From the IMG/VR virus record IMGVR_UViG_3300035156_000177, positions 1 to 60,852 of that record: a stretch of DNA of 60,852 nucleotides, one strand, 5' to 3'. Positions 655-59,671 of the stretch are shown in pieces. The notes under the pieces are model-generated. The model had not been told where the DNA came from, searched no databases, and saw nothing but the letters and a program-made list of their open reading frames with translations. Origin of the DNA: a virus (lineage: Duplodnaviria > Caudoviricetes). The position numbers and the translations under genes are program-made. Numbering within the stretch: the stretch's first letter is position 1; the number at the start of each line of letters is the position of its first letter.

Positions 655-663
655 AGGCCAGTC

Positions 664-1548: not shown

Positions 1549-1551
1549 CAC

Positions 1552-3152: not shown

Positions 3153-3194
3153 CCCCCTCCCTCCCCCGCACCATCTACCACCTCGGAGTCACCC

Positions 3195-26914: not shown

Positions 26915-27065
26915 CGTCCACGTCGAGCCGATCAACGACCTGATCGAGCACCAGGACGAGGACTGCCCGTGCGGTCCCGAGACAGAGCCCGTGCCGCGCG
27001 AAGACGGTAGCATCGGCTGGCTGATCATTCACCACTCCCTCGACGGCAGAGAGCTCAACGAATGA
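26907..27065 (+). CDS. small His/Cys metal-binding protein
   Basis: HV.P.NDLIEH...CPCGP...W...HHSLDGRE, a pattern familiar from actinophages. Confidence 0.65.
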   Translation: MSNVHVEPINDLIEHQDEDCPCGPETEPVPREDGSIGWLIIHHSLDGRELNE

Positions 27066-27622
27066 CCGCGGTGGCACCGGAGGGGCGCCAGCAGTGGGGC
27101 GGCAAGAAGCGGGTGCGCAAGAAGCGGGCCAAGGTTCCCGAGCGCTACCAGCAGCTGATCGACGGGGTGATCACCGTCGACGACCTGGACGACGACGAGA
27201 TCGCGCGCGGCCAGCTGCGCAACCGCAACGGCGGGTTCTCCTCGCCGCCGCAGGCGATCCCCTGGGTGATGCACGACGCGCTGAGGGCCAGCATGGAGCG
27301 CCGGATCCAGCGCCAGCTGATGAGCAAGATGACCGAGGTCACCGACGCCCTGATCAAGATCGCCACCAACGACTACGGCAGCGCTGAGGCCCGGGTGAAG
27401 GCCATGGCGCTGATCTTCGACCGGGCTCTGGGCAAGGTCCCGGAGAAGTCGGAGAGCAAGGTCACGATCACGGCGAAGTGGGAGGACGCGGCCGCCGGCG
27501 GCCGGTTGTTCATCGACCTCGACGAGCCCGAGGGCGACGTCGTCGACGCCGAGGTGGTGCAGACCCCGGAGATCGAGGCGAAGAACACAGGAACTCGGCA
27601 GCGCTCGGGCATCGTGCTCTGA
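27062..27622 (+). CDS. probable terminase small subunit
   Basis: DDLDDDEIARGQLRN.NG.F...P and L..IA.....R.KA..I.DR..GK.PE resemble actinophage TerS. Confidence 0.55.
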   Translation: MTAVAPEGRQQWGGKKRVRKKRAKVPERYQQLIDGVITVDDLDDDEIARGQLRNRNGGFSSPPQAIPWVMHDALRASMERRIQRQLMSKMTEVTDALIKIATNDYGSAEARVKAMALIFDRALGKVPEKSESKVTITAKWEDAAAGGRLFIDLDEPEGDVVDAEVVQTPEIEAKNTGTRQRSGIVL

Positions 27623-27668
27623 TAACCTGGACGTCGACTCTCTGGGGAGGGATGTCGCCCGAAAGATC

Positions 27669-27711
27669 AAACCCGCTTGCTGGCCCCCAACCGACGGCAG
27701 GCGGGTTTTTT
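27669..27711 (+). terminator. intrinsic terminator
   Basis: AAACCCGCTTGCTG pairs with CGGCAGGCGGGTTT, followed by a T-run. Confidence 0.8.
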
Positions 27712-27735
27712 CTTGCCCGGACACGGTGTCGGGCT

Positions 27736-27772
27736 GTAGCGCACTAGTGCTGTCCAGTGCTACGGTGAGGGC
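27736..27772 (+). promoter_or_regulatory. leaderless promoter with candidate operator
   Basis: TGC-TACGGT ends 6 nt before ATG 27773; GTAGCGCACTA and palindrome GCACTAGTGC upstream. Confidence 0.5.
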
Positions 27773-28027
27773 ATGTCATCCTACCTATCAGAAGCTGACC
27801 GCCGCATCCTCGAGAAGGACCTTCCCGAGACCAAGCCCAAGGACCCCGAGCCCCCGGAGGACCACGACGACGACGACGAAGACGGTGGAGGCGGTGGTGG
27901 ACTGCACTTCCACCTCGACGGGCTCTTCGCCGCGATCGCCGTGATCGCGTCGGTCTACATGATCACCCGGGCCCTGGTCCTGATCTTCGCCCCGGAGGCG
28001 GCGTGGGCCCTGCTGAGCCACCCGTGA
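27773..28027 (+). CDS. membrane protein with acidic N-terminus
   Basis: acidic/Gly tract then C-terminal hydrophobic helix. Confidence 0.65.
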   Translation: MSSYLSEADRRILEKDLPETKPKDPEPPEDHDDDDEDGGGGGGLHFHLDGLFAAIAVIASVYMITRALVLIFAPEAAWALLSHP

Positions 28028-28356
28028 TCACGGGCTACAACCTCAGCAGGATCGCCTTCGGCGCCGACCCCAGCCCGGTCGAGCCGTTCGCTGAGCGCAC
28101 GCCCGGCCAGCTCTGGCACCACCTGCTGACCCTCGACCCCAACGAGCGCCTCGAGGTCCTGGCCAACCTGCAGGAGTCGGCGCGCCTGGGCTACGAGAGC
28201 GTCGTCCAGGACCTCCGGGGCAAGGCCGACTACCTGGCGCGCATCGAGGCCGCGCGGTCGAAGGTGGCGTGGTCACCGCCGGCCGAGGAGGACTGCATGT
28301 GCCGGGGTGCGTTCCACTACCCCAACTGCCCGCACGGCCCGAAGGACGGGGAGTGA
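28024..28356 (+). CDS. hypothetical protein
   Basis: GTGA overlap; C-terminal CxC..H...C.H. Confidence 0.6.
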   Translation: MITGYNLSRIAFGADPSPVEPFAERTPGQLWHHLLTLDPNERLEVLANLQESARLGYESVVQDLRGKADYLARIEAARSKVAWSPPAEEDCMCRGAFHYPNCPHGPKDGE

Positions 28357-28463
28357 GCACCGCGGCGGGGGTCATCGCCCTGATCCTGATCCCCATCGTG
28401 ATCATCAAAGAGATCCGAGATGCTGTGAGGAGGCACCGTGACAACCGCGGTCGAAAGGGCTAG
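28353..28463 (+). CDS. tiny membrane peptide
   Basis: GTGA overlap; one hydrophobic helix and basic tail. Confidence 0.4.
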   Translation: MSTAAGVIALILIPIVIIKEIRDAVRRHRDNRGRKG

Positions 28464-28644
28464 GGCTGACGTCGAGGCCCAGCGCGATCGGCTTGAGGCG
28501 TTCGAGCTGCACCTGCAGACCGTGACCCTGGAGGCGCTCCAGCTGGGTGTGTCGATCACCGAGGCTGCCCGGCAGGCCGGGGTCAACCGGTCGACGATCT
28601 ACCGCTGGCAGGGCGTCAGCGACCACGAGAGGACCCCCGCATGA
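28438..28644 (+). CDS. HTH DNA-binding protein
   Basis: GAGGAGG RBS; GVSITEAARQAGVNRSTIYRW. Confidence 0.85.
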   Translation: MTTAVERARADVEAQRDRLEAFELHLQTVTLEALQLGVSITEAARQAGVNRSTIYRWQGVSDHERTPA

Positions 28645-28922
28645 TGAGCAACGAGCCCGTCGCCGATTCCGCCCAGCCCACGATCATCAACGCCTTGGAG
28701 AGGCAGGAGAAGGCGCTCGCACAACTGCTCGAGGCGACCAACCACCTCGAGTCGAAACTGGGCCACATTCTCTTGCCTGAACAAGAGAGCGAGTCCAAGC
28801 AGGTCGTCACCCCCGTTGACGATTCGAACACGTCCTTGGTGCGCTCCCGGGTGGAGGTAGCCACGTATCGCATCGGAAGCCTGGCTCGATGCTTGCGTGA
28901 TCTGGTCGATCGCATCGAGTAG
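28641..28922 (+). CDS. coiled-coil hypothetical protein
   Basis: ATGA overlap; ends at the terminator. Confidence 0.6.
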   Translation: MMSNEPVADSAQPTIINALERQEKALAQLLEATNHLESKLGHILLPEQESESKQVVTPVDDSNTSLVRSRVEVATYRIGSLARCLRDLVDRIE

Positions 28923-28933
28923 TCCTGACAACG

Positions 28934-28972
28934 ACAAAGCCCCCGTCCCTGTGAGGAGGACGGGGGCTTTGT
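28934..28972. terminator. bidirectional terminator between convergent operons
   Basis: ACAAAGCCCCCGTCC pairs perfectly with GGACGGGGGCTTTGT (15 bp). Confidence 0.85.
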
Positions 28973-28977
28973 GCTGT

Positions 28978-29232
28978 CTACGACCGGGCGATCAGCTGTT
29001 TGATCCTCTCACGGGACGCGCCGGCCTTCTTGACCCGGTCCTCGCCCCAGCCCTTGGCCAGCAGCCCGTCGCGGACCATCTGCTCGATCTCGGCGTAGGT
29101 GAGGTTGGCGTCGCGGTGCAGGCACGCCATCGACGCGGCGCTGGACCGCATCCGCTTGGCCACCTCGTCCTCGGCGCGGAGCTTGACGTGGAAGTCCTGG
29201 ACCACCGAGGCGACCAGGTCCGCCACGATCAC
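28978..29232 (-). CDS. small protein, possible HTH-like regulator
   Basis: GTGA-coupled; LTYAEI...GASRERIKQLI resembles a split HTH. Confidence 0.6.
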   Translation of the reverse strand: MIVADLVASVVQDFHVKLRAEDEVAKRMRSSAASMACLHRDANLTYAEIEQMVRDGLLAKGWGEDRVKKAGASRERIKQLIARS

Positions 29233-29492
29233 CCGGCGTCCTGACCGGGCAGGCCGGCGATCAGCAGCAGCACGACGATCAGCGGCAGCTCGACGGCGAA
29301 CCAGGTCTGCAGGTAGACCATCGCGGGCACGGTCTGCTTGCGGGTGATGGTCTGCAGCACCCCGCCCTCCCCCCACGACTGCTGGTGTTGGTCACCGTCG
29401 GGCTTCCAGGACGAGACCACGGTCACCAGCCCCGCGATCACTGTGGCGAGGACCGTGGCTACGATCAGCCCCGCCTTGACTCCGATGTTCAT
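29229..29492 (-). CDS. two-TM small membrane protein
   Basis: ATGA-coupled; two hydrophobic helices. Confidence 0.7.
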   Translation of the reverse strand: MNIGVKAGLIVATVLATVIAGLVTVVSSWKPDGDQHQQSWGEGGVLQTITRKQTVPAMVYLQTWFAVELPLIVVLLLIAGLPGQDAG

Positions 29493-31516
29493 GCTTGTGT
29501 CCCCTTGTCCCTGTTGAATGAGAGGTGGACGTGCCCCTCGTGGTTGGACGCCCCCGAGTAGGGCCGCCATCCGTCTCCTGACCTATCCAAGGTCCAGATC
29601 TGGTTGTTGTGGATCACCTGCTCGACCCCCAGCTGCCGGGCGTTCGCTCGGGCCCAGCGCGAGATGTCGAACCCGAGCTGCTTCCTCGACCCGGTCATGA
29701 TGTCGCAGGCGTGGCCGGTGTAGTGGAACGAGTTGGCTACGTGCCCCGACTTCTGGATCGCGCAGTCGGCGACCCTGACCTTGATCGGGAAGTGCTTCAT
29801 GACCAGCTCGCGGCCGCGCGCGGTGTTCGGGGCCATGTTGTCGGAGCGGATCGGCCAGCCCGCGGGAGGCCCGCCCTTGAGGGTGGCCTTGGCCAGGCTC
29901 GGCGTGCCCTTGGATCCGATCTCGAAGACCCTCAGGCGGCGCTTGTCGCCGGTGAAGACCTTGACCCCGATCATGTTCCCGAAGACACCCTCGGGCTCCC
30001 GGTTGCCCTTCTTCTCGCCCTTGCGGAACCCGACGTCGGTGACGTCGCGGATCCCGATGCGCTTGCCGGTGGTGAACGACCAGGTCTCCATCGAAGCCGG
30101 GCCGTTGGTCTTGCCGGACAGGATGGTCAGGATCTTCCCGCTCACCCCGAACCCCTGCCGCATCCCCGGGGCGGTCTTGATCTGGACCCCGATCTCCTTC
30201 TTGGTGGCCATGTCGTAGAGCCGGTACTTGTTGCCGCGGCGGATGACCGCCCGGTCGGCGTGGGGGTCGATGCTGATCTCGCCGTGCCAGCCGGTCTTGC
30301 TCTGGCTGCCGCCGTCGATCGTCGTCCCGCCCCGGTAGGGGAACGAGACCACGGTGTCGGAGACGTCGGCGTAGACGATGCCCTTGCGGACCCCGATCCC
30401 GGTGGGGTGCATCTCGCCTCGGACACGCATCTCCGAGACCTGCTGGCCGGCGCCGTTGAGCTGGTGGACCACCGCGGCGTTGTTGCCGGTGGTGGCCTTG
30501 GCGACGTACCAGTACGGGCCGTCCTTGGCCATGGTCTGGAAGTTCCCGGCGCCCGAGGGGTTGAGGCTGATGACCTCGCGGACCGTGCCGTTGATGTCGC
30601 CGGTGGCGGTGCCCAGACCGGGGTCGCCGGTCGGCGGCTGGGCGCAGTCGGTGGGGTTGGGCACCGGGTCGTTGGGGTCGGCCTGCATGGCGTTGGGCAG
30701 TTGCTCGACACGGACCCCGGGCTGGTTGGGGACGAGGTTCTCGTACTGCGGCGCGTCGCTCTGGGCGGAGTGCCGGGTCGACCAGGGGTAGTACGGGCTG
30801 CGGCCGTTGGCGACGCTGTCACGCGCCACCTCGAGGGCCTTGCGTGCGTTGGCGTACGGGTCCTGCCAGTTCGGGATCTTCCAGTACTGGTCGTTCAGCT
30901 GCCACATCCCCCGCATGGTCCCGGCTCCCACCGTGGGGCCGACGGCCTTGGGGTTGAACGAGGACTCGTGCTTGGCGATGGCGATGAACATGGCGATCCA
31001 CTTCTTGGGGAACCCCGCCCGGGAGAGGGCGTCGGCGGCCAGCTCGGCGCCGGAGAGCTCCTTGGTGGTCGACAGGCTCGCGGGCTGTACGGTCCCTCCC
31101 CCGCTCTGTGGGGGCGTGCCGGGCTGTTCGACGGGCACGGTGGCCAGGGTGGGGCAGCACGACGCCAGGGCGGCCTCGTAGGACGCCTGGCCGGTGCTCT
31201 GCCAGGCGGCCGACAGCGGCGTCTCGGGGGCGTTGGCGCCGTACTTGACGTGGGCGACGAAGTCCTGGCGCCACATGTCGATGATCCCGATCCCGCCCAT
31301 CACGGTCTTGTGGATCTGGGCGTACGAGGGCTGCTTGCCGGTCTGGCTGATGTCGTGCAGGAACGTCCCGGCGATGCCGGTGTACTCGAGCCCGCGGACG
31401 GCGGGGATGGTGGTGACCTGGGGGCCGCAGTTGACCTTGACCTCGGTCTGGTTGACCGCCACGGCGCCGGCGATGAGGACGGTCGACACGATGATCGGGG
31501 TCCAGTGGACAGACAT
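29489..31516 (-). CDS. exported multidomain peptidoglycan hydrolase: SLT/lysozyme-like + beta-propeller + M15-like peptidase
   Basis: N-terminal signal/anchor; AIAKHESSFNP.A...GMWQLN...DP..NA...PWST; SFH..G.ACD...NHEGHVHLSF; TGATG-coupled start at 31516. Confidence 0.8.
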   Translation of the reverse strand: MSVHWTPIIVSTVLIAGAVAVNQTEVKVNCGPQVTTIPAVRGLEYTGIAGTFLHDISQTGKQPSYAQIHKTVMGGIGIIDMWRQDFVAHVKYGANAPETPLSAAWQSTGQASYEAALASCCPTLATVPVEQPGTPPQSGGGTVQPASLSTTKELSGAELAADALSRAGFPKKWIAMFIAIAKHESSFNPKAVGPTVGAGTMRGMWQLNDQYWKIPNWQDPYANARKALEVARDSVANGRSPYYPWSTRHSAQSDAPQYENLVPNQPGVRVEQLPNAMQADPNDPVPNPTDCAQPPTGDPGLGTATGDINGTVREVISLNPSGAGNFQTMAKDGPYWYVAKATTGNNAAVVHQLNGAGQQVSEMRVRGEMHPTGIGVRKGIVYADVSDTVVSFPYRGGTTIDGGSQSKTGWHGEISIDPHADRAVIRRGNKYRLYDMATKKEIGVQIKTAPGMRQGFGVSGKILTILSGKTNGPASMETWSFTTGKRIGIRDVTDVGFRKGEKKGNREPEGVFGNMIGVKVFTGDKRRLRVFEIGSKGTPSLAKATLKGGPPAGWPIRSDNMAPNTARGRELVMKHFPIKVRVADCAIQKSGHVANSFHYTGHACDIMTGSRKQLGFDISRWARANARQLGVEQVIHNNQIWTLDRSGDGWRPYSGASNHEGHVHLSFNRDKGTQA

Positions 31517-31791
31517 CACTTCCCCTTCGAGCGCAGGACGAAGCTGAGCAGAATCGAGACGATGCCGACCGCGCAGCACACCAGCTGGACGCTGTTGGGG
31601 AGCGAGGACATCATGGTCCCGCCCAGCGAGCACCCCGTCCCGATGATGCCGAGGTTGGTGCCCAGCGACGCCTTCTTCTGGGGCTGGGGCTGGACGCCCT
31701 TGCTGTCGGCGCGCTCGTAGGTGGTGGCGCGGACGTGGACGGTCTTGCCGTTGCGCGTGTAGCTGTAGGGCTTGCGGTGCACCGTGGTCAT
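31516..31791 (-). CDS. small two-TM membrane protein with basic N-terminus
   Basis: coupled on both sides; YTRNGKTVHVR then two hydrophobic segments. Confidence 0.7.
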   Translation of the reverse strand: MTTVHRKPYSYTRNGKTVHVRATTYERADSKGVQPQPQKKASLGTNLGIIGTGCSLGGTMMSSLPNSVQLVCCAVGIVSILLSFVLRSKGK

Positions 31792-33974
31792 TCCGAGAAC
31801 CCCCAGCCCTGGACGGGGCCGCCGGGCCGGGAGGCGCCGACGAGGTGGGTCAGGTGGAAGTTGTCGTCGGTGCCGGTGGGCGCCAGGTCGTAGCCATCGG
31901 GCTCAGGCACAACATCGTTGCTCGGCGTGGGCTCTTCTTTGCGTATCGGTGTCACAGACGCAACTTCCTTGTCTACTGGCGCAACTTTCTTGCGTACGAT
32001 CCGGCGCTTCCGCTTCGCCTCGGTGGCTGCGGCCTGCTCCTCGGTGGGGGTGGTGAGCACGTACGGCTCGCGCTCGACCAGGGACGCCTTGAAGTGCCGC
32101 TTCTTGGTCTCGACCGGCTTCTCGTCGTCGATCACCTTGCCGTCGATCGTCATGGACGGGCCGCGGTAGGTGAGCCGGGTCAGGTGGACCTTGCGGTTGT
32201 TCCCGGCCCCGGCGATGTTGAACATCGGCTGCAGCGCGTGGATCTCGGCCTTCTCCATGGCGACTGCCAGGTCGTGCCCGGCGACGACGCAGGACATGGT
32301 GAAGAGTGCGTGCTTCTCCCACCACCGGCAGTCCTGAACGGTGCAGATCGGGCACTCGCCCTTCCACACATCGTCCCTGCGGTGCTCTTTGTAGCGGCGC
32401 TCCCGGTTGTTCGTCTCGCCGGTGTAGATATGACCGATCTTCCTGTTCTTGAGATATCCGAACGTCCGGTACAGGTAATGCGGCCTCTGCCCGTTCCGCA
32501 ATTCGCGGGCCAGGTCCCGGGTCATCATTCCCTCGGGTAAAGTCCCGGTGGTCATGACGTGGCGGATATGGACCTTGGTGACATTAGCGGTTCTGAACTT
32601 AGCTTTCTGACCGCTTTCGGTGACATAGAAACCCACACCCGGCATATCGAACGGAATGGAGGTGCAGGGAACCCCATCGCTTTCACTGATACCGAGGGCC
32701 GCCTTTGTCGCCTCGGCGGTCATCTGACGAAGGCTGACTTTCATCTGGAATGCCTTGCCGATCCCGCCGATCTCGGCCACGGTGGCGGCCTGGACGCCCA
32801 TCCAGACGAAGTCCTTGGTGCGCCGACCCTGGGACATGTAGACGCCCATGTTGGTGTTCGCCATCCCCTTCTGGAACAGCGGAGCGACGTCCAGGCCCTC
32901 GTCGATGATTGTCCACTGGGCCCGGAACTCATCGGTCGGGTGCTCGAGCTCCTCGCCCGGTCCGAACATCCGGTCGGCCCTGGCCTGGCGCCGGTGCAGC
33001 TCGTGGCGCATCTTGAGGAAGTGCGCCTCGGCCTCCTCGAGCACTCGGTTGTGCACCTCGTCGTCCTCGACGTCCTCGTCCTCTTCGGGCCCGATGTAGG
33101 TGACGATGCGGATGCGGCCGTTGGCGAAGGACTTGCCTTCCCACTGCTTGAACCAGGCGAACTCGCTCTTGGGGTCGATCAGGGTCATGTCGGTCGGGGT
33201 GCCCGGGAGCGAGGGGTCGAGGTTGTCGCGCAGCAGGTCGAAGAACGCGTTCCAGATGAACTTCGACTTGCCGGCGTTGGAGGTCGCCGAGATCTGGAGG
33301 TTGTAGCCGAACGGGACGGTGGCCGCGTTGCCGTCGTTGAGCCACCCGAAGGTCAGCGACCTCGCACCGGACGGGGGTAGGTCCAGCACGGTCCGGGGCG
33401 CCTCGAGGGGGCTCTTCTTGTAGAAGGTCAGCCATGCCGAGCCGGTGGTGACGGGGCTGACCGAGACTTCCTGGCAGTCCATGATGCCGGGGAGGATGGT
33501 GACGGCGTCGGCCGCGATCCGGGCCAGGTCGCCGCCGACCTTGCCGGGGTTGACCATGGCCTTGATCTCCCCGGTGGAGGTCATCTTCTTGGCGTAGAGC
33601 TTGGGCTCGACGTTGGTGAACGGGCGCTTCGGCCCGGTGACGTAGATCTCCCAGCGGGCGTCGGTGTCGCCGAACTTGTTGGTCGAGGAGAACACGTTCT
33701 TGAGCAGCTGCAGGAACCCGCCCTCGACGCCCTCATCGCGGAGGTCGGTGAACCGGTCGTACACCTTGAGGAAGCCGACCCACAGCCCGAGGCCGGCGAG
33801 GACGCCGAGCACCATGCCGCCGCCTTTGAAGATGTCCCCGGTCCACCCCCAGAACTTCCACCAGGCCAGCAGGACCAGGAAGGCGAAGATGCGGGGCGGG
33901 AAGTCCAGGACGGCGCGGTTGGGGTTGCGGACCCAGCGGTAGAGGGCGGGGACCTCGAGGAGGAACTTCTTCAC
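31788..33974 (-). CDS. membrane-anchored FtsK/SpoIIIE (TraB/TcpA-like) ATPase with C-terminal GIY-YIG-like domain
   Basis: two N-terminal TMs; ISATSNAGKS, LIDPK, EL.RRQ, IIDEG, QGR...Q, PGVGF; then YLYR...IYTGETNN..RR.KEH...A...EK.EI....P.FN. Confidence 0.8.
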   Translation of the reverse strand: MKKFLLEVPALYRWVRNPNRAVLDFPPRIFAFLVLLAWWKFWGWTGDIFKGGGMVLGVLAGLGLWVGFLKVYDRFTDLRDEGVEGGFLQLLKNVFSSTNKFGDTDARWEIYVTGPKRPFTNVEPKLYAKKMTSTGEIKAMVNPGKVGGDLARIAADAVTILPGIMDCQEVSVSPVTTGSAWLTFYKKSPLEAPRTVLDLPPSGARSLTFGWLNDGNAATVPFGYNLQISATSNAGKSKFIWNAFFDLLRDNLDPSLPGTPTDMTLIDPKSEFAWFKQWEGKSFANGRIRIVTYIGPEEDEDVEDDEVHNRVLEEAEAHFLKMRHELHRRQARADRMFGPGEELEHPTDEFRAQWTIIDEGLDVAPLFQKGMANTNMGVYMSQGRRTKDFVWMGVQAATVAEIGGIGKAFQMKVSLRQMTAEATKAALGISESDGVPCTSIPFDMPGVGFYVTESGQKAKFRTANVTKVHIRHVMTTGTLPEGMMTRDLARELRNGQRPHYLYRTFGYLKNRKIGHIYTGETNNRERRYKEHRRDDVWKGECPICTVQDCRWWEKHALFTMSCVVAGHDLAVAMEKAEIHALQPMFNIAGAGNNRKVHLTRLTYRGPSMTIDGKVIDDEKPVETKKRHFKASLVEREPYVLTTPTEEQAAATEAKRKRRIVRKKVAPVDKEVASVTPIRKEEPTPSNDVVPEPDGYDLAPTGTDDNFHLTHLVGASRPGGPVQGWGFSE

Positions 33975-34006
33975 GGGAGGCCTTTGGTCTGGGAGGGGGA
34001 GGTAGG

Positions 34007-34037
34007 GGCGCCCCGCACGGGTGAGGTGCGGGGCGCC
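34007..34037 (-). terminator. internal hairpin (attenuator or stabiliser) after the first gene of the minus operon
   Basis: GGCGCCCCGCAC pairs perfectly with GTGCGGGGCGCC (12 bp). Confidence 0.7.
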
Positions 34038-34043
34038 GGGTGG

Positions 34044-34283
34044 TCAGGGCGCGATGCCCTTGGTGGGCTTGCTCGCTGCGTTCTTGGCCGCGGCGAACTT
34101 GTCGCCTCCGCCGGACAGCGAGCCGACCAGGATTCCGCTGCCGACCTCGCCGGTGTCGCGGACGTAGTTGACGCCGGTTGCGGCGGAGTTGATCCCGTCG
34201 ATCCGGGCCCAGCATCCGATCGCCAGTGCGGCGATGACGAATGCGCCGGCGAGCCACCGGCTGAGCGTTCCTTTCTTGAACAC
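34044..34283 (-). CDS. small membrane or secreted protein (79 aa)
   Basis: GAGAGG RBS, GTG start; basic N-terminus, hydrophobic helix, Gly-rich tail. Confidence 0.7.
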   Translation of the reverse strand: MFKKGTLSRWLAGAFVIAALAIGCWARIDGINSAATGVNYVRDTGEVGSGILVGSLSGGGDKFAAAKNAASKPTKGIAP

Positions 34284-34352
34284 GATGGTTCCTCTCGGTT
34301 GTGAGCCCTGGGGCTCCGGTGGGGGAGACGCCCTCGCCTTCGGTTCTCGGCT

Positions 34353-34427
34353 GAGTAGACAGAGAGCCGGTCCCCGACAGAGCTGCTCCCCCATGGGGCT
34401 CTGCCGCGGACCGGCCTCGGCGTACTC
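34353..34427 (-). other. long interrupted hairpin in the 5' leader of the minus operon
   Basis: nested pairings GAGTA/TACTC, GCCGGTCC/GGACCGGC, CAGAG/CTCTG, CCCC/GGGG. Confidence 0.6.
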
Positions 34428-34904
34428 GCCTCCTCCCGGCCTCGATGTCGTCGGGTAACACGCTACCGGTAGTGCGCTACCAAAGCGAGCAAACATGTGC
34501 CGTTTTCCGTGCGAATGTTGAACTTTGTTGCGTGCGGGGTTAGGCTCGGCGCGCATCCACTCGCTTCGCTCGCTGCGCGCGCCGGACCGGCTCCTCCCTC
34601 GACGAGTCCCGATCCGCTAGAGTTGGGCCCACGTCTTCCGCTCCGGTGCTGGCACACCGTCCGCAGGTTCCACCACAACCTCGATGCGGTCGACGTCAGA
34701 CTTCCGAAGCCACCTCGTCGAGTCCCCGATGTCACCGCTCGATCAGGTTCTGGCCACCTGTTGACACATCCGTCGCCCGTATGCTGTGCGTATGCCACCT
34801 GCTCTCGTGCTCTCCCGGATGCACCAGGTTCCGAGGACGCTCTCCAGCGTCTCGGGCTTGTTCGTGCCTTCTGGCTCTGCCCTTCTCCAGGGGGGTGTGG
34901 GGGG

Positions 34905-36617
34905 ATGGCGGTGAAGATCTTCAAGCTGGCCCGGTGGACGGGGCCTTGGGGTGTGGACCTGATCCAGGGGGTCAAGTACATCCGGATGAGGAGCGGCAAG
35001 ATCCGCTACGTGATCGCCCAGGCGGAGAAGGTCCGGGGTCAGGACGAGGAGGACACGGTTTTCCGGGAGACCGACGGCGACGGGAACTTCGTGGCCACCT
35101 GGGTCCAGAAGCGCGGCGGTCACGGGTCGAGTTTCGGGTTGGACGAGATCGACGGGGACCTGTGCGTGTGGCAGGGGCATCTGGTGAAGGGCGTCGGCTG
35201 GTGGCCGCTGGGCCGGCCCGGTGAGTTCCATCCCGTCAAAGGTGTTCCGAACGGCGACGTTTCTGTTGATCCGAAGGACGATTTGCTGTCGGTGCGTCGC
35301 GGTAACCGCCATATTGTCTACGCGCTGTCATCTGTGAAGGACGGCGCACCGATTGTGTTGGCCGATACGACGGTTCCGTCGTGGGGGAAGCGGTTTCAGG
35401 GTTCGATGGTCACACAGCTCGCCGACGGCCGGATCGCGCAGCTGGTGCACCGTGATGTCGAGTCGAACGGGGCGTCGCGGGCGCACCGGTTCGTGATCGA
35501 GAAGGGCGAGCTCGTCGAGGACGGGTGGGTGGACACCGCACCGTTGCCGGGCAAGACGTCGAGGGAGGCCGAGGGGTTCCTCGAGGAGGAGGGCGTGATC
35601 AGTGCGACCTTCCGGATCGGCGGGAACAACTCGTCGAGGACAGTGATGGCGGTCCCGCTGCAGTGGCAGGGCCTTGTCGAGGTGGGCTGCGACAGCCCGC
35701 CCCCAGAGATTCAGGAGCTCGAGATGGCCAAGGACTACACGACCGGATATGGGTGGACCGCGTCGCCGGACCCCGACACGTGGGGCGGCAACGCGACGAT
35801 CGACTGCTACGGGACCAAGTTCCGGGTGCGCCGGGACCTGGTGATCGGGAGCAAGGACGGCATCCTCGCCGACGCCTTCCGCTACCTGATCTTCTCGTTC
35901 AACCGGCGGGTGGAGCGGATCTCGGAGTACGCGAAGGGCGACGACTGGTCGTTCTACTTCAAGGCCAACGCCAACAACCCGAACAAGATCTCCGAGCACG
36001 GCGGCGGGGTGGCGATCGACATCAACGCGACCCAGCACCCCAACGGCGCAAGCAGCAAGTACGTGGGGTTTACCAAGGCCCAGGTCGCCGAGATCGACCA
36101 GATCCTCGATGAGATGGAGGGGATCATGGAGTGGGGCGGCAACTGGCGTTCCACGATCGACGGGATGCACTTCAACATGGCGCCGGGGACGAACAGCACG
36201 GCGGGCAAGAAGGAGGTGGCCCGGGTGGTGGGTGAGCTGCGGAAGCGGATGAAGGCGGACCCGACCAACTTCGGTCTGCCGGGGATGCCGCCGGCCAAGC
36301 CGTTGATCTCGCTGCGGGCGGTCCAGAAGGCGATTGAGGGCCGGGAGCGGCTCGACCTGGGGGAGGACGGGAAGCAGTACCAGACCATGCTCAACCGGTT
36401 CCACGACTATGTCCTCGAGGTCGACGGAATTCTCGGGAAGGACACGCGCCGGTCGACGTCTTTGGCCCAGCTGAAAGTCGCCCAGGGAAATGGCAACACG
36501 ACGTTGGACAAGGACGACTGCTGGCAGGACGGTAAAACCGACTTCCATCCTGACCTGGACGGTATTCCCGGTAAAGAGCTGTTCGCCGCTCTCGGCATTG
36601 ATAACAGTGACTCATGA
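34905..36617 (+). CDS. endolysin: N-terminal beta-propeller fused to M15 (L-Ala-D-Glu-type) peptidase and PG-binding-like C-terminus
   Basis: SEHGGGVAIDIN...WGGNW...DGMHF; VDGILG..T and LDGIPG; adjacent to holin; internal AGGAG plus ATG at 35724. Confidence 0.85.
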   Translation: MAVKIFKLARWTGPWGVDLIQGVKYIRMRSGKIRYVIAQAEKVRGQDEEDTVFRETDGDGNFVATWVQKRGGHGSSFGLDEIDGDLCVWQGHLVKGVGWWPLGRPGEFHPVKGVPNGDVSVDPKDDLLSVRRGNRHIVYALSSVKDGAPIVLADTTVPSWGKRFQGSMVTQLADGRIAQLVHRDVESNGASRAHRFVIEKGELVEDGWVDTAPLPGKTSREAEGFLEEEGVISATFRIGGNNSSRTVMAVPLQWQGLVEVGCDSPPPEIQELEMAKDYTTGYGWTASPDPDTWGGNATIDCYGTKFRVRRDLVIGSKDGILADAFRYLIFSFNRRVERISEYAKGDDWSFYFKANANNPNKISEHGGGVAIDINATQHPNGASSKYVGFTKAQVAEIDQILDEMEGIMEWGGNWRSTIDGMHFNMAPGTNSTAGKKEVARVVGELRKRMKADPTNFGLPGMPPAKPLISLRAVQKAIEGRERLDLGEDGKQYQTMLNRFHDYVLEVDGILGKDTRRSTSLAQLKVAQGNGNTTLDKDDCWQDGKTDFHPDLDGIPGKELFAALGIDNSDS

Positions 36618-36895
36618 GTATCTGGCAGAAGGATTTCTGGAAGGCTGCGGTCGAGCGCATGGTTCGGGGTGCGGCTATCGGGGCAGGGACAATTGTCGGC
36701 GGTGACGTGTTCAATGCCTTCGAGGCTGACTGGGAGCGGATTGGCGGGGCCGCTGCGGGCGGGGCGTTCCTGTCGTTGCTGTTCTCGCTGATCGGTAACG
36801 CCGCCTCGGGGAACGGTCCGTCGTTCACCAGCACCGAGCAGGTCGCCACCGGCTACGGCACGTCGCTTGCGGAGCGGGAAGCGGGCGAGAAGTAG
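36614..36895 (+). CDS. holin (r1t-like)
   Basis: FWKAAVER.VR.AA, two TMs, LSLL.S....GPS; ATGA-coupled to the lysin. Confidence 0.85.
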   Translation: MSIWQKDFWKAAVERMVRGAAIGAGTIVGGDVFNAFEADWERIGGAAAGGAFLSLLFSLIGNAASGNGPSFTSTEQVATGYGTSLAEREAGEK

Positions 36896-37920
36896 TGCCG
36901 ACGCCGGAGGAGGTCCAGGCTGTCGTTGACGAGGCGGTTGCCGGCCTGGGCGCGCGGATCCACGCCATGTTCGGCACGACCCCACCCCCGCCGGACCCGT
37001 TGGCGGAGAATCTGGGCCTGATGATCTTCGTCAAGGAGGAGACCTTCGACCGGGACCTGGCCGAGCTGGTCGCCACGGGCGCGACCTGGGGCCGGTTCGA
37101 CATCCCGATCGGTGCGTACGGGTCGATCAGCAACGGGGTGTTCACTCGAAACGCAGCCAAGGCCATCTTCTACAAGCAGGCCATGGCCCAGGTCCGCGCG
37201 GCCGGCATCAAGGTCGTCCTGGTGATGGCGTCGCTCTACGTCAACAACACCTGGTCCGAGGCCCAGTTCAACGACTACAACGGCCAGTACGTCAAGGCGG
37301 TCGCCGAGGACATCGGGGAGTTCGTCGACCTGTGGCAGATCTACAACGAGCACGACGGGCGGGACTACCGCAACCATGCGTCGCTCAACAACGTGCTGTC
37401 GCCGACTTACCTGCAGCGCATGAACACGTCTCTGACCGTCATGCGCGACCGGATCCGCTCGGTGGCCGGGCTCGAGGCGGCGAAGATCACCACGACCCCG
37501 TTCGGCTACCCCGTCAACGATGCGAGAGTGGCGAAGTGGAAGGCGTTCTTCGACGGGCTGCCCGTGCTGGACGTCATCTGCGTGCACGCCTACCCGGAGA
37601 AGTCGGCGACCGCGATGTCGATCATGACGGTTGCGATGCGTGAGCTTCGAGCCCGCTACGGCAAGCCGGTTGGGATCCTGGAGTTCGGGCTGCCGTCGGT
37701 GACGTCGTACGGGACCTTCGATGTGGTCGGGGATGCGGTCGTGGCCCAGATCCACGCGGTGATGCTGGCCGACCCGTTCGTCGCCACCCTCTACCAGCTG
37801 CGAGACCGCGGGGTGTCGTCCACCAACGGTGAGCTCGCGTTCGGGATCCTGACCAACGGGTTCTCACCGAAGGCCGGGATCTACGACAAGGTGGTCGCCA
37901 AGATCAAGACTTACCGCTGA
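36895..37920 (+). CDS. glycoside hydrolase, clan GH-A TIM barrel
   Basis: W.RFD, WQIYNE (acid/base), HAYP, ILEFG (nucleophile), YQLRD, E..FGIL. Confidence 0.8.
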   Translation: MPTPEEVQAVVDEAVAGLGARIHAMFGTTPPPPDPLAENLGLMIFVKEETFDRDLAELVATGATWGRFDIPIGAYGSISNGVFTRNAAKAIFYKQAMAQVRAAGIKVVLVMASLYVNNTWSEAQFNDYNGQYVKAVAEDIGEFVDLWQIYNEHDGRDYRNHASLNNVLSPTYLQRMNTSLTVMRDRIRSVAGLEAAKITTTPFGYPVNDARVAKWKAFFDGLPVLDVICVHAYPEKSATAMSIMTVAMRELRARYGKPVGILEFGLPSVTSYGTFDVVGDAVVAQIHAVMLADPFVATLYQLRDRGVSSTNGELAFGILTNGFSPKAGIYDKVVAKIKTYR

Positions 37921-38437: not shown

Positions 38438-38482
38438 TGGTCGTAGGGGAGAACAGCGCCCCGGAGTCCGAGAGCGGTTGAC

Positions 38483-40399
38483 ATGGTGGTGCTCGACGAG
38501 ACCTTGGCCGCGTACGAGGCGGACCACCGGCTCCACCACCAGGTCCTGCGCGACGCGTTTCTGATGCGCAACCCTGCGGCGCAGCTGCCGGTGTTCGTGA
38601 ACTACGGGGTGGTCCACGACGAGATCCATGCGACCCTGCACGACGAGCACAACGACCTGGGGCTGACCCCGACGCTCCCGACGGCCATTGGCGGATCTGA
38701 GCACGTCGAGCACCACGAGATCCTGGCAGCCGCCCACAACGTGCGGGAGGTTACCCCGGACATTCCCCAGACGGCGCTGCGCGGGTGGTGGAAGGCCGAC
38801 GCGATCACCGGGGTGGCGTCGGGGGCGGCGCTGACGTCGTGGCCGAGCTCGGTCGACGGCGGGGTTCCGTTGACGGCGACTACGGGCCCGTTGTACGTGT
38901 CGGAGGGGGCGGTACTGTCCAACACCCGCCCTGCGGTGCAGTTCACCGGCGCGGTCAACATGGTCTCGACCACCGATAACAACACCGCCTCCACCAAGTT
39001 CATCGTGCTCCGCCCTGGGTCGTTCGGTGGTGGGTCTTCGTTCTACGCCGGGTCCGGTGGCAACGGCTACGAGCTGGGCCTGGGCCCCGGTGGGAAGTTC
39101 GACGTGTTCGTGGGAAACACCATCGTGGCTCGCACGGGGACCGCTGAGGGGACCCCGATCCCGATCAACACCTGGCACGTCCTGGCGGTGCGGGGCAACG
39201 GGTCCAACTCGACGACCACCTACATCGACGGGGTGCAGGACGGGCCGACGTCGACCGCCGGCCACAGTCCGGCCTCCACCGGGACCATCGTGGGGTCGTC
39301 GAACGGGGGCGGGTACTTCAACGGCTGGATCTCGGAGGTCATCGACTACAGCGTCGCGCTGAGCGACCTCGAGATGGGCGAGGTGACCGACTACCTGCTG
39401 ACCAAGTACGCGATCGGCGAGGTGGGTGCGCCGGACCTGACAGGGGTGTTCCGCAACTTTGACTGGGACACCTCGGAGAACCAGGCGTTCACGCACTCGG
39501 CGTCGGACTACCAGGTCGGCGCCGCTCACCAGCACGCGTGGCTGACCACCCCCACCCGATTGGGCACCGGCCACTCGGAGCGCTTCGAGTGCCACGGTCA
39601 GGCCACCGACATCGCCGGTGGGAACTCGTACCGGGCGATGATGGACGTCGTCGACACCAACGAGGGCGGCGACACGGTGGGAGCGGTGATCGGCTATCCC
39701 GAGGTCTACTATGCCCTGTCGACGTTCTGGCCGACGGTGGCCGGGACCCCGTCGCAGGCGACGATCACCCCGGGCTACTCCCAGGTCGGGATCCCGTTCG
39801 AGTCCATCATGGAGATCCACGAGCGGGGGAACGTCAACGGTGGCACGGTCGGGATCAACAACCTCAACCAGGTGACCAACCACCACATCGGGCTCCGCAA
39901 CGGCCAGTTGCAGTACCGCGGCTGCAACGGGACCTGGACGTGGAACGGGAGCGGTTGGACGCAGCCGGCGTGGAACACGGGCACCCCGGGGACGACGGGG
40001 AAGAACGACCAGATCCCGGTGCCGATCGTGAAGCCGGGTGTGACGGACGCGGCGATGCCGTCGGACACCTGGGTCGACATCATCATCCACATCCTCTTCC
40101 GCAAGGACTCGACGGGGCTGGTCGAGGTGTGGGCCCGGCAGGCGGGGCAGGAGTTCACCACCCTGCCGGGGGTCACGATCAACGGCCCGACACACAAGGT
40201 CGCGGTCGGCTCCGACGGAGTCACCCGCTCGTCGGCCGACTACGAGGCGGCGAACCTGGTCACCGGGTGCTACTTCCACTGCGGTCTCTACCCGGCCGGG
40301 ACGGTCTGGGCCGACGGGACCAACGGGGCGCATGTGCAGATCATCGACGAGCTGCGGCGTTACGGAACGCTGGCCGAAGCCAAAGCCAACTGGGAGTAG
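38483..40399 (+). CDS. LamG/concanavalin-like domain plus polysaccharide-lyase-like domain protein
   Basis: WWKAD..G...L.SW, WHVL, YIDG, FNG.ISEV..Y..ALS; C-terminal EIH...W.DII.HI.F....G.VEVW...YF..GLY. Confidence 0.6.
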   Translation: MVVLDETLAAYEADHRLHHQVLRDAFLMRNPAAQLPVFVNYGVVHDEIHATLHDEHNDLGLTPTLPTAIGGSEHVEHHEILAAAHNVREVTPDIPQTALRGWWKADAITGVASGAALTSWPSSVDGGVPLTATTGPLYVSEGAVLSNTRPAVQFTGAVNMVSTTDNNTASTKFIVLRPGSFGGGSSFYAGSGGNGYELGLGPGGKFDVFVGNTIVARTGTAEGTPIPINTWHVLAVRGNGSNSTTTYIDGVQDGPTSTAGHSPASTGTIVGSSNGGGYFNGWISEVIDYSVALSDLEMGEVTDYLLTKYAIGEVGAPDLTGVFRNFDWDTSENQAFTHSASDYQVGAAHQHAWLTTPTRLGTGHSERFECHGQATDIAGGNSYRAMMDVVDTNEGGDTVGAVIGYPEVYYALSTFWPTVAGTPSQATITPGYSQVGIPFESIMEIHERGNVNGGTVGINNLNQVTNHHIGLRNGQLQYRGCNGTWTWNGSGWTQPAWNTGTPGTTGKNDQIPVPIVKPGVTDAAMPSDTWVDIIIHILFRKDSTGLVEVWARQAGQEFTTLPGVTINGPTHKVAVGSDGVTRSSADYEAANLVTGCYFHCGLYPAGTVWADGTNGAHVQIIDELRRYGTLAEAKANWE

Positions 40400-44521: not shown

Positions 44522-44826
44522 TGGCCGGACGTGTCCTCAGGGACAGCAAGGGACGCTACGCCGGGTCGACGCGCGGCTGGGGCAGGGGGGTGAGCCGCGG
44601 CGGCAAGGGCGGTGCGTCCGGTGGCGGGCGGATCAAGAAGAAGGGGTCGGGGGTGATCTACTCCCGGCCCGCTGCGGTGGGGATGGCGATCAAGCGGGGC
44701 GTGTCGGTGGGCGGTCCGATCGCCGCGCTGAACCGTCGCAGCCCGTCGGCTCTGGCGACCGCGGCGGCCGTGGCGTCGGTGACCGGTGCGCAGACGTACC
44801 GCAAGGCGCGTACCGGGCGGCTGTGA
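44521..44826 (+). CDS. small basic Gly/Arg-rich protein
   Basis: TGATG coupling; RDSKGRYA motif. Confidence 0.6.
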   Translation: MAGRVLRDSKGRYAGSTRGWGRGVSRGGKGGASGGGRIKKKGSGVIYSRPAAVGMAIKRGVSVGGPIAALNRRSPSALATAAAVASVTGAQTYRKARTGRL

Positions 44827-44830
44827 GCTG

Positions 44831-59467: not shown

Positions 59468-59638
59468 GGGGGTTAGGGGTGATGTTGGGTGTTACGTTTC
59501 GCTCCCTCGACCAATAAACGCGTATGTGCGTAAGTTACCCGTCAGTAGGTTACTGGCCAGTAACTTAAAACATGCGATTTTCACACGCGTACGCCGCAAC
59601 CTAACACCCCTAATACTCCTAACACCCCGTATCACCCC
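59468..59638. repeat. iteron-like inverted-repeat element (copy B, inverted relative to copy A)
   Basis: 59468-59525 is close to the reverse complement of 23194-23251; right arm CTAACACCCCTAATAC matches; core palindrome GTTACTGGCCAGTAAC. Confidence 0.8.
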
Positions 59639-59671
59639 TATTTTCTACTGTTTAGCGCACTTGGAGGACCG

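Follow-up and report, generated by a model that had tools for sequence, protein, structure and literature searches.

The window, that is, the whole 60,852-nucleotide stretch of DNA that we analyzed, is the siphovirus record IMGVR_UViG_3300035156_000177, from an uncultured soil phage with high-GC bacteria as hosts. Between positions 34283 and 28978 it carries six minus-strand genes (hereafter the cassette), the last five of which are translationally coupled: gene 2 overlaps gene 3 by ATGA (31791–31788), gene 3 overlaps gene 4 by TGATG (31518–31514), gene 4 overlaps gene 5 by ATGA (29492–29489), and gene 5 overlaps gene 6 by GTGA (29232–29229). A Shine-Dalgarno-like sequence lies upstream of all six starts. 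Gene 1 is separate from gene 2, with a 12-bp GC hairpin between them (–28.7 kcal/mol, z –4.47) that is possibly an attenuator or an mRNA stabilizer. The cassette leader contains a strong hairpin (34355–34425, –47.4 kcal/mol, z –5.1) and a palindrome (34454–34481), recorded as inverted repeats I3 and I12; within the divergent intergenic region, we found neither a sigma-70 consensus promoter nor an Rfam family near threshold. At the downstream end, an intrinsic terminator (–41 and –37 kcal/mol on the two strands, z –8.9 and –6.5) is common to the cassette and the convergent plus-strand genes. The cassette therefore looks much as an earlier sequence-only reading had described it, as six minus-strand genes, five of them coupled, ending in a bidirectional terminator.

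Table 1. Features of the cassette and its flanks in window coordinates.
Feature	Position	Strand	Basis or description
Divergent intergenic region, ~620 bp, cassette vs endolysin	34284..34904	-	sequence reading
Gene 1, 79 aa, GTG start	34044..34283	-	one N-terminal TM helix, Gly-rich extracytoplasmic tail
Intra-operon GC-rich hairpin I23, gene 1/gene 2 gap	34007..34037	-	12-nt perfect arms
Gene 2, ATPase-nuclease, 728 aa, 2 TM	31788..33974	-	profiles, AlphaFold model, alignment
Gene 3, 91 aa	31516..31791	-	basic N-terminal 42 aa, Gly-rich hydrophobic stretch, C-terminal TM
Gene 4, cell-wall hydrolase, 675 aa	29489..31516	-	N-terminal TM anchor; domain matches
Gene 5, 87 aa	29229..29492	-	2 TM helices
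Gene 6, 84 aa	28978..29232	-	soluble, probably helical
Bidirectional intrinsic terminator I5	28934..28972	.	perfect 15-nt arms; detected on both strands

The rest of the window supplies the ordinary equipment of a tailed phage: a lysin (M15_4), an r1t-type holin, terS, terL, portal, capsid and tape measure. The canonical lysin and holin lie at 34905–36895, apart from the cassette, which occupies the other strand and has a leader and a terminator of its own; the separate lysin-holin pair and terminase noted in the first reading are thus present. The cassette adjoins lysis genes both in the window and in a related contig, L006. GC3 of the six genes (0.88–0.98) matches the rest of the genome. The cassette is not an assembly chimera: contigs from other runs bridge both of its junctions, and its synteny recurs in independent contigs, in which the genes are not decayed. 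Neither the window nor two related, nearly complete genomes yielded an integrase or ParA. PF00589, PF00239 and PF13614 had no match in G000, G001 (complete, with terminal repeats) or G002, and among these three ParB_N was matched in G002 only, below the cut-off. Judged by gene content, the phages that carry this cassette look non-integrating and without partition genes, which leaves the phage-plasmid proposed at the outset unsupported.

A motor-nuclease fusion and its wall-cutting partner

Gene 2 is predicted to begin with two transmembrane (TM) helices, at about residues 27–45 and 53–71 (TM counts of cassette proteins are from a Kyte-Doolittle scan), followed by a Tra/FtsK-type P-loop motor at about 120–470 with Walker A at G235-K236-S237 and Walker B at D358-E359. 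A GIY-YIG domain follows at about 498–590 (Y502, Y517, G519, R527, H531, E574, N586), and the tail is disordered with a conserved motif, HLTH..G..SE, at its end. In the 82-member family to which the protein belongs, Walker residues G235, K236, D358 and E359 are invariant (82/82). The GIY-YIG domain is found in 80 members, its catalytic residues near-invariant (Y502 in 79, Y517 in 76, G519 and R527 in 80 each, E574 in 77 and N586 in 76). Pfam GIY-YIG scores the window protein at 0.0016, below the cut-off, and 40 of the 82 relatives at 0.001 or better (best 8.5e-9); the family profile matches the UvrC N-terminal domain at 2.3e-4. Alignment and profiles thereby identify a motor joined to a GIY-YIG nuclease domain, with the catalytic residues conserved throughout the family. 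The FtsK-like motor of the sequence-only reading stood, but this C-terminal nuclease had been overlooked.

The motor itself is very divergent. Pfam PF01580 (FtsK_SpoIIIE) did not match the window protein at E 0.01, nor at E 10 in a six-frame search, and we assign gene 2 to the FtsK superfamily through its family profile; PF01580 does match 55 of the 82 members. Against the PDB, the profile of all 82 members finds FtsK at 2.5e-24, EssC/EccC at 2.8e-24 and TcpA at 3.7e-16. An AlphaFold model of gene 2 (pLDDT 83.9) has the FtsK motor (5.3e-13) and TcpA (1.3e-12) as its best fold matches, with SIR2-HerA, HerA-NurA, DndH, TdpAB and EccC/EssC chains among the others. Profile and model agree in identifying gene 2 as an FtsK-superfamily P-loop motor anchored in the membrane, as had been read from the sequence.

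The relatives that score highest are transfer proteins. [quoted passage not shown] A narrower profile built from eight phage-lineage proteins gives 62–86 bits for four AICE-type Tra proteins and 19–37 for FtsK, and does not detect pCQ4 TraB. In trees, the gene 2 family is monophyletic (SH-aLRT 99 and 98) and sits beside AICE Tra and TraB with support of 86–91, TcpA falling outside the Tra clade; on motor-only columns the family stays on the same side of the branch as AICE Tra, with support of only 48. EccC was compared by profile and left out of the trees. The closest detectable relatives of gene 2, by sequence, are therefore the Tra double-stranded DNA translocases of actinomycete integrative and conjugative elements, not FtsK or TcpA.

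Gene 4, downstream of the motor and coupled into the same operon, encodes a hydrolase. Behind its N-terminal anchor lies an SLT/lysozyme-like domain (about 157–250; Pfam SLT 2.3e-5, over the cut-off, and SLT_3 1e-5; PDB lysozyme 3cb7, 2.2e-6), then a beta-rich middle part and, at the C-terminus, a zinc-peptidase-like domain of the LAS type (M15/Hedgehog-like; about 590–670). The latter matches Pfam HH_signal at 0.0017, below the cut-off, and shows the motifs H-x-x-G-x-A-x-D and H-x-H; gene 4 also matches PHROG 32486 (3.1e-6). These domain matches identify a membrane-anchored enzyme with two outward-facing wall-cutting modules, in keeping with the exported hydrolase first proposed. Hydrolases occupy the orthologous position in L002, L003, L006, L016 and L019, and across contigs they combine SLT with a variable M15-like, M23 or EEP domain.

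The four remaining proteins are small. Gene 1 matches no Pfam, PHROG, NCBIfam or PADLOC family; in L002, L003 and L006, a homologue of it (41–55% identity) lies upstream of the ATPase gene, and L016 and L019 have a 1-TM protein at its position. Gene 3, likewise without a match in those four databases, has a weak homologue in L003 (32% identity). It had been called a 2-TM protein; its C-terminal TM is strong, but the glycine-rich stretch is weak, leaving the second TM uncertain. Gene 5, whose two TMs agree with the first reading, has homologues in L002 and L006 (38–39% identity) and 2-TM counterparts in L003, L016 and L019; no holin or other family was matched in Pfam or PHROG. Soluble proteins of like size stand at the gene 6 position in L003 and L019, and the helix-turn-helix character suggested for gene 6 is unsupported, its best Pfam matches being at E 0.086 and 0.14.

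The core of SLT hydrolase and ATPase is found in six of the eight viral contigs that carry the gene 2 family. It is kept at ATPase identities down to 37% to the window protein (L006) and recurs in a separate clade of the family (L016, L019), and in L017 and L018 the ATPase is found without the hydrolase. We did not find the module in isolate phages, plasmids or bacterial genomes. A scan of species-representative bacterial genomes with two pattern sets, which has limited sensitivity, did not find the gene 2 family, placing it on viral contigs only. The fusion of Tra motor and GIY-YIG domain, together with the coupled hydrolase, forms a coherent family, known so far only from metagenomes, and we found no description of it in the literature.

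What the cassette may do

We hypothesize that the operon encodes an envelope-spanning machine that handles double-stranded DNA, with conjugation-like export and spread of the phage independent of the virion, a reading to which we give somewhat less than even weight. The motor would assemble as a membrane hexamer whose motor and nuclease domains face the cytoplasm, the gene 4 hydrolase would open peptidoglycan locally, and the small membrane proteins would build or gate a conduit. TraB and SpoIIIE carry a DNA-recognition domain at the position occupied here by the nuclease. Lying on the DNA-entry side of an exporter, the nuclease could make a free DNA end for threading, and replicated phage DNA would be pumped into the adjoining cell or hyphal compartment. 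Outward pumping is suggested only by the homologues. Such spread would pay in filamentous or tightly aggregated hosts, filamentous growth being an assumption here. Since integrase and partition genes are lacking, transferred DNA would just start a new lytic cycle, which would be unprecedented.

Several features count against export: the window protein by itself does not match Pfam FtsK_SpoIIIE, the motor-only join with AICE Tra is poorly supported, L017 and L018 have the ATPase but no hydrolase, Tra and TraB proteins have no nuclease, and the sequences reveal no Spd-like partner in the cassette. Specifically, no SpdB2/DUF2637 match was found by Pfam among the small proteins, and blastp of the accessory proteins against the neighbors of six plasmid or AICE Tra genes gave no match below E 0.09; the likeness to Spd proteins suggested by the first reading is not supported. 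No winged-helix clt reader or helix-turn-helix family was found in the gene 2 C-terminus, where the GIY-YIG domain and disordered tail lie. The search for a clt-like array of short direct repeats covered 27600–35000 and found none; it would not reveal a repeat-free site or one farther off in the genome. We regard an export function as plausible but tentative.

The main rival is superinfection exclusion or anti-phage defense, in which the motor-nuclease catches and cuts the DNA of a second phage or plasmid as it enters at the membrane. Self would be told from non-self by location, as in SNIPE, with the small membrane proteins sensing or marking the entry site. SNIPE sits in the membrane and uses a GIY-YIG nuclease to cut phage DNA while it is being injected (PMC13190303), and in the gene 2 family the GIY-YIG catalytic residues are kept in 75–80 of 82 members. 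The fold matches, too, include ATPases of the FtsK/HerA type that have a nuclease or another effector as partner (SIR2-HerA, HerA-NurA, DndH, TdpAB), and the opposite-strand placement with its own leader and terminator would suit such a system. However, no PADLOC model matches any of the six proteins, DUF4041 was not found in them, and the outward-facing hydrolase coupled to the motor in six of eight contigs has no obvious role in exclusion. The module also holds its position over the deep divergence described above, unlike fast-swapping defense genes, the family is confined to viral contigs as far as the bacterial scan could detect, and the nearest homologues of the motor are exporters. On this evidence we consider exclusion unlikely, though a serious competitor.

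An accessory lysis or host-takeover module is less probable again. Here the hydrolase would serve as an additional, signal-anchored lysin, with the 2-TM protein as its holin-like partner, and host DNA would be broken down at the membrane by the motor-nuclease. The hydrolase has the kinds of domain seen in endolysins from this group of phages (the window lysin has M15; EEP-like motifs, read by eye, occur in putative lysins of L002 and L006, and the cassette hydrolases of L002, L003 and L019 match Pfam EEP), and the cassette adjoins lysis genes in two contigs. Yet the 2-TM protein matches no holin family, the phage already has a canonical lysin-holin pair, breaking down host DNA calls for no membrane anchor and no conjugation-type pump, and the coupled translation of pump and hydrolase suggests that they belong to a single complex. 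A plain holin-endolysin cassette was also rejected, as genes 1, 3 and 5 match no recognized holin family in Pfam or PHROG.

We consider very improbable an EccC/EssC-type ATPase exporting the hydrolase or other phage proteins: Thermomonospora curvata EccC equals FtsK in score with the family profile, the fold matches include EccC/EssC chains and NCBIfam EccCa gives a trace match (E 0.092), but AICE-type Tra score two to three times FtsK while the EccC chain scores no higher than FtsK, gene 2 has one ATPase domain where EccC carries three, a DNA substrate is implied by the fused nuclease, the hydrolase carries a signal anchor of its own at the N-terminus, and no WXG100-type substrate was detected among the six proteins.

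Returning to conjugation-like export, its fullest form is that virulent-looking soil actinobacterial phages carry a relaxase-free, conjugation-derived exporter with a built-in nuclease and a wall-opening enzyme, and push replicating genomes into neighboring cells or hyphal compartments. We hold this doubtful. If it were true, such phages would have a second, particle-free infection route that escapes receptor-based resistance and extracellular decay. Movement of phage DNA between cells would give phage biology a route of transmission that needs no virion and could explain how phages exploit multicellular actinobacteria, and because the phages look lytic rather than like plasmid-prophages, the boundary between conjugation and infection would blur in a new way. 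To our knowledge, how double-stranded DNA is prepared for threading through the ring is an open question in TraB-type conjugation, to which a nuclease-fused motor would be a natural answer. Were the cassette an exclusion system instead, SNIPE and similar membrane nuclease defenses would gain a new relative, one driven by ATP. Overall, the original observation is confirmed and its interpretation partly supported: the six-gene operon may, from its sequence, move phage DNA across the cell wall in a conjugation-like manner.

Comparison with known systems

The E. coli defense protein SNIPE shares with gene 2 an N-terminal membrane anchor and a cytoplasmic GIY-YIG domain; its middle domain is DUF4041 and not an ATPase motor, and it is a single bacterial gene with no hydrolase partner (PMC13190303). 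We rejected an identification with SNIPE, as TM and GIY-YIG are present in the cassette but DUF4041 and a PADLOC match are not.

The TcpA/TcpG-type locus of pCW3 likewise has a membrane-anchored FtsK-like ATPase in a locus with a peptidoglycan hydrolase, in its case a glucosaminidase-domain protein. It adds a relaxase (TcpM), a large 'ATP-binding protein', which we take to be the VirB4-like TcpF, and more channel proteins, none of which is in the cassette. Gram-positive type IV secretion was rejected on similar grounds, there being one ATPase only and no relaxase or VirB4 match among the six proteins.

Phage genomes with conjugation-type genes do have precedents, so 'undescribed system' was an overstatement. 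The plasmid-phage pZL12 is cited as requiring a tra gene for conjugal transfer (PMC3583192), its relative pSLE1 has ParA/ParB (PMC4487206), the traA-traB genes of pCQ4 lie about 3 kb from its terminase gene, and phiC31 and VWB carry SpdB2 homologues. These phages are temperate or plasmid-borne, with classical TraB or SpdB2. The present phages lack integrase and ParA, and their motor belongs to a different clade and comes with a nuclease fusion and a hydrolase.

Streptomyces TraB (the pSVH1, pSG5 and pIJ101 system) is a single FtsK-like pump for double-stranded DNA that works with no relaxase and no type IV secretion system, and the products of the translationally coupled spd operons form a membrane complex with TraB and contact peptidoglycan (PMC4447253). 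The cassette resembles it in having a single membrane FtsK-like pump with small, translationally coupled membrane proteins. However, the TraB C-terminus reads 8-bp clt repeats where the cassette motor has its nuclease, the SpdB2/DUF2637 of the TraB system has no homologue here, and the cassette encodes a true hydrolase whereas the pSVH1 proteins only bind peptidoglycan.

Nearest of all are the Tra proteins of AICEs and small plasmids, the top-scoring known relatives of gene 2, for instance those of Micromonospora rosaria pMR2 (an FtsK/SpoIIIE-domain protein), Gordonia pGRS1 and M. avium pS2b. The transfer proteins of AICEs and of Streptomyces plasmids have an FtsK-SpoIIIE domain and move double-stranded DNA (PMC2440964); the table of that review enters conjugation by pMR2 as not determined. 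The Tra genes stand beside Rep, Int and Xis genes (replication-initiator genes for pGRS1 and pS2b) rather than in a phage, and these neighbors are unlike the accessory genes of the cassette. The AICE and plasmid Tra proteins share with gene 2 the N-terminal TM region and the single FtsK-type motor, but they stop at the motor end (464–553 aa), whereas gene 2 continues into the GIY-YIG domain.

Layout of the cassette and the surrounding genome

The cassette is a block of six minus-strand genes flanked by terS and the lysis genes, and each of its junctions could be read directly in the sequence. As the sequence-only reading had described, genes 2–6 are coupled through ATGA, TGATG, ATGA and GTGA overlaps and the block ends in a bidirectional terminator, which has a perfect 15 bp stem. 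Gene 1 (34283–34044) is uncoupled from the rest and is directly followed by a GC hairpin. GC3 is 0.88–0.98 across the six genes, all of which have a Shine-Dalgarno-like sequence. We found no sigma-70 consensus promoter for the cassette, no Rfam match for the cassette region and no clt-like repeats around it. A 10-mer, TAGTGCGCTA, or its complement, is present at 34470–34479, upstream of the cassette, and at 27737–27746, just 3' of terS, and both copies face the same way with respect to the genes that follow them. It could serve both sites as a promoter or operator element, though it is not statistically significant: a count of 3 was reached in 5 of 100 shuffles, and we rejected it as a significant motif.

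Coordinates of features in the window and in related viral contigs
Feature	Contig	Position	Remark
terS	window	27062–27622	
Divergent intergenic region	window	34284–34904	620 bp, if endolysin begins at ATG 34905
Hairpin in cassette leader	window	34355–34425	-47.4 kcal/mol, very stable
Palindrome in cassette leader region	window	34454–34481	
Endolysin, M15_4	window	from 34497 (listed ORF)	ATG 34905 probable true start
Holin, r1t-type	window	36611–36895	
terL	window	44783–46216	
EEP or EEP-like span	L002	8082–9392	
EEP or EEP-like span	L006	7152–9020	
EEP or EEP-like span	L003	12339–14576	
EEP or EEP-like span	L019	11560–13461	

The cassette is not the product of a chimeric assembly, since contigs of other sequencing runs bridge both of its junctions and its gene order is repeated in independent contigs. 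Run X2, possibly the source sample, covers 27000–29362 (record 1) and 34039–34604 (record 7), run X3 covers 34106–34542 (record 13), and one contig of run X5 covers 28976. Five joints were not accepted as a cassette-less variant; each came from one contig, four had sides of 20–21 letters, and the fifth skipped 79 bases. At position 33953 the window has C and contigs of four sequencing runs have A, which changes ATPase residue 8 from V to F. The database copy of the ATPase (P0001) that we used for alignments and fold has F at this residue, unlike the window translation.

PHROG and Pfam scans identified the window, a complete IMG/VR virus entry of 60,852 bp with a GC content of 67%, as a siphovirus. 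Its structural genes include those for the tape measure, the portal and the major capsid and tail proteins, and it also has a DnaE-like polymerase, primase-polymerase, helicase, exonuclease and Sak4 for replication. Nearly all genes lie on the plus strand. The distance from terS to terL is 17 kb, and the cassette and lysis genes sit between them. Also in this interval are a 650-aa Laminin_G_3/polysaccharide-lyase-like protein (38447–40399) and a second minus-strand block (~40612–43818) with zero family matches. The left end (415–4460) carries an anti-restriction-like protein (phrog_7245) and a DNA methyltransferase, which suggests counter-defence functions. The tape measure is the second-last gene of the record, and neither distal tail genes nor genes for receptor binding could be recognised at 59564–60852 or 1–414. 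CheckV gave a completeness of 100% and terminal repeats are absent; despite this estimate the genome may be incomplete and lack some tail genes, its relatives being 68.6 and 76.2 kb.

The window capsid is at most 62% identical to capsids of Arthrobacter, Microbacterium, Gordonia and Mycobacterium phages, and the M15 domain of its lysin is ~28% identical to lysin A of Mycobacterium and Gordonia phages. The window has zero tRNA genes, which gave no host clue, and tblastn of the gene at 36799–37920 found no phage match.

A predicted motor-nuclease and its nearest relatives

Searched alone, the window ATPase gave nothing against Pfam FtsK_SpoIIIE even at E 10, a sub-threshold Pfam match to GIY-YIG (0.0016), and nothing useful in PHROGs, NCBIfam, PADLOC or PDB; tblastn returned zero matches in 50,697 phage records and 72,556 plasmids. 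In an exhaustive phmmer search over 1.84 billion representatives, 144 proteins passed E ≤0.001 and 66 of these also passed ≤1e-10. We aligned 82 mostly full-length family members, and the resulting profile (A2) was the only query to give informative matches, with PDB hits to FtsK (2.5e-24), EccC (2.8e-24), TcpA (3.7e-16) and the GIY-YIG domain of UvrC (2.3e-4). Among the members themselves, Pfam matched PF01580 in 55/82 and PF01541 (GIY-YIG) in 40/82. AlphaFold reached a pLDDT of 83.9 with the A2 input, compared with an unusable 38 from four sequences. By Foldseek the best matches of the model were the FtsK motor, at 5.3e-13, and TcpA, at 1.3e-12, with EccC/EssC and HerA complexes next; BFVD fold matches were mostly unnamed.

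From its N-terminus the protein has two transmembrane (TM) helices, then the motor, which is cytoplasmic, and a GIY-YIG domain; the tail is disordered and ends in a conserved motif. The sequence-only reading had overlooked the nuclease domain. Because the Walker residues are invariant (82/82) and the GIY-YIG domain is kept in 80/82 members, these ATPases form a family of their own, in which a motor of Tra/FtsK type is fused to a predicted nuclease. The catalytic residues of the domain are retained in 75–80 of the 82. We rejected a recent homing-endonuclease insertion as its origin, as those 80 members carry it in the same place across deep divergence.

All 10 members checked by cluster look-up were metagenome singletons, eight of them unnamed. 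A word-based search seeded with the family alignment yielded true FtsK proteins for the most part, and pattern scans with three single distant members found nothing in viral contigs. Two pattern scans of bacterial genome contigs detected no relative, each with one or two short peptide patterns, so that bacterial absence is not established.

To place the motor among known proteins, we ran tblastn with a consensus-like member (P0031), which matched the motor domains of proteins encoded on actinomycete plasmids. Their sources are Micromonospora pMR2, Nonomuraea, Streptosporangium, Gordonia, M. avium and Streptomyces (with the annotation 'plasmid transfer protein TraB'), and a query cover of at least 80% was reached in none of the 43 matching records. 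We then scored a local set of six plasmid-type genes, TcpA and TcpB of pCW3, and six FtsK-like proteins taken from the word-based search. With the A2 profile, four Tra proteins of AICEs or small plasmids scored 188–253 bits, aligned across the TM region and motor, against 71–90 for the FtsK set, 77 for pZL1 Tra, 68 for pCQ4 TraB and 61 for TcpA. A profile of eight phage-lineage proteins gave the same four Tra proteins 62–86 bits and FtsK 19–37, and left TraB, pZL1 Tra and TcpA undetected.

In a 44-row IQ-TREE phylogeny, the check that had been proposed for the ATPase, the GIY-YIG family formed one clade (SH-aLRT 99) that joined AICE Tra and pCQ4 TraB (86) and then pZL1 Tra (91), with FtsK and Tcp proteins outside; this was a quick run that retained the GIY-YIG columns and had long TraB branches. 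When the tree was restricted to the motor (327 columns, 43 rows, TcpB omitted), the GIY-YIG family (98) and AICE Tra (95) were kept and fell together to one side of a branch, whose support was only 48. EccC was in neither tree. The profile scores strongly, and the trees moderately, thus place the motor within the conjugative Tra group of actinomycetes, as a derived member.

The wall hydrolase and conservation of the cassette in other phages

Gene 4 encodes an N-terminal signal anchor, an SLT/lysozyme-like domain (Pfam SLT 2.3e-5, above cut-off; PDB lysozyme 2.2e-6) and a C-terminal domain with LAS-type motifs and weak family support (HH_signal 0.0017, PHROG 32486 3.1e-6); tblastn of this hydrolase found no phage match. 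Gene 1 has one TM helix, gene 5 has two, gene 3 combines a basic N-terminus with one strong TM helix, and gene 6 is soluble. None of these four small proteins had a match in family searches. The earlier label of 'HTH-like' for gene 6 is unsupported, and an ESM Atlas search with the 2-TM protein was uninformative.

We compared eight viral contigs carrying the ATPase family: the window, L002 (68.6 kb, with terminal repeats), L003 (76.2 kb), L006, and L016–L019, which were retrieved via a separate clade of the family. The L002 and L003 ATPases are 56–57% identical to that of the window, and the L006 ATPase 37%. The same neighbourhood does recur in other phages: six of the eight contigs (window, L002, L003, L006, L016 and L019) have an ordered core in which a small protein with one TM helix is followed by the ATPase, the hydrolase with its TM anchor, and a small protein with two TM helices. 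The SLT module of the hydrolase is usually constant and its second module swaps across phages: the window has an M15-like one, L006 and L016 have M23, and L003 and L019 have EEP. By Pfam the L002 hydrolase has EEP alone, and its N-terminal region is similar by tblastn. Besides the EEP domains that Pfam finds in cassette hydrolases, EEP-like motifs are visible by eye in putative endolysins of related phages; these occurrences suggest an envelope phosphodiester target in the host.

The two lower-GC contigs, L017 and L018, have the ATPase without the hydrolase. At 8369–14129 of L018 a 513-aa family ATPase is followed directly, on the same strand, by genes for an HTH_23 protein, a terminase-like protein and a portal of SPP1 type; this contig also carries a serine recombinase. 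The cassette adjoins terS in the window, L002 and L006. With its core kept across divergent contigs, the cassette is not a decayed remnant; judged by this comparison it is a long-lived phage module, and we also reject a recent insert.

Among viral genome records examined for lifestyle genes, tyrosine integrase was found in 0/7 and serine recombinase in one of the seven (G005, 37% complete and without the hydrolase); neither integrase nor serine recombinase occurred in the five records at least 90% complete. ParA was found in 0/3, and ParB_N gave a below-cut-off match in one of the three. One record, G001, is complete, unlike the window with its possible gap. In gene content, nothing favours a temperate or phage-plasmid lifestyle.

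Possible roles and comparison with known systems

The cassette encodes a membrane-anchored Tra-type motor with an intact nuclease domain, small membrane proteins and a bifunctional, outward-facing hydrolase, under tight translational coupling. We infer that the motor-nuclease, hydrolase and small proteins would act as one envelope-spanning complex handling dsDNA. Tentatively, we favour export of phage DNA into a neighbouring cell or compartment, because the nearest homologues are exporters, a conduit would suit a dedicated wall-opening enzyme, and the nuclease occupies what we take to be the site of the TraB/SpoIIIE DNA-recognition domain, on the DNA-entry side. There it could create an end for threading.

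The main rival, which we regard as possible though rather unlikely, is a membrane nuclease for superinfection exclusion. This would account well for the nuclease, and SNIPE (PMC13190303) provides a precedent, but it leaves unexplained the hydrolase, the deep conservation and why the family appears confined to viral contigs. It is improbable that the cassette is a second module for lysis or host takeover, and an EccC-like secretion ATPase would be very surprising.

Among the papers that literature searches listed, none described an FtsK/Tra-GIY-YIG fusion, going by their titles and abstracts. Thermobifida phage P1312, which has an FtsK-like ORF63 (PMC4569894), was absent from the results of both tblastn searches of the phage collection. 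PaV-LD (NC_016564.1), a cyanophage of a filamentous host, encodes a protein of 475 aa at 655–2082 on the minus strand, which starts with hydrophobic segments and carries a Walker A motif of FtsK type; this membrane P-loop ORF matches PF01580 at only E 0.0066, the family profile finds nothing in PaV-LD, and GIY-YIG motifs are not visible by eye in the ORF. The Streptomyces plasmid pCQ4 (NC_019307.1, 4685–12846), apparently a phage-plasmid similar to pZL12, has traA-traB ~3 kb upstream of a 'terminase family protein'. SpdB2 homologues of phiC31 and VWB were suggested to aid the spread of phage DNA (PMC4447253). Four things are new here: a cassette in which neither Spd homologues nor clt-like repeats were found, a whole family of motor-nuclease fusions, the pairing of this fusion, obligatory by its looks, with small membrane proteins and an SLT hydrolase that has a TM anchor, and its home in apparently virulent phages.
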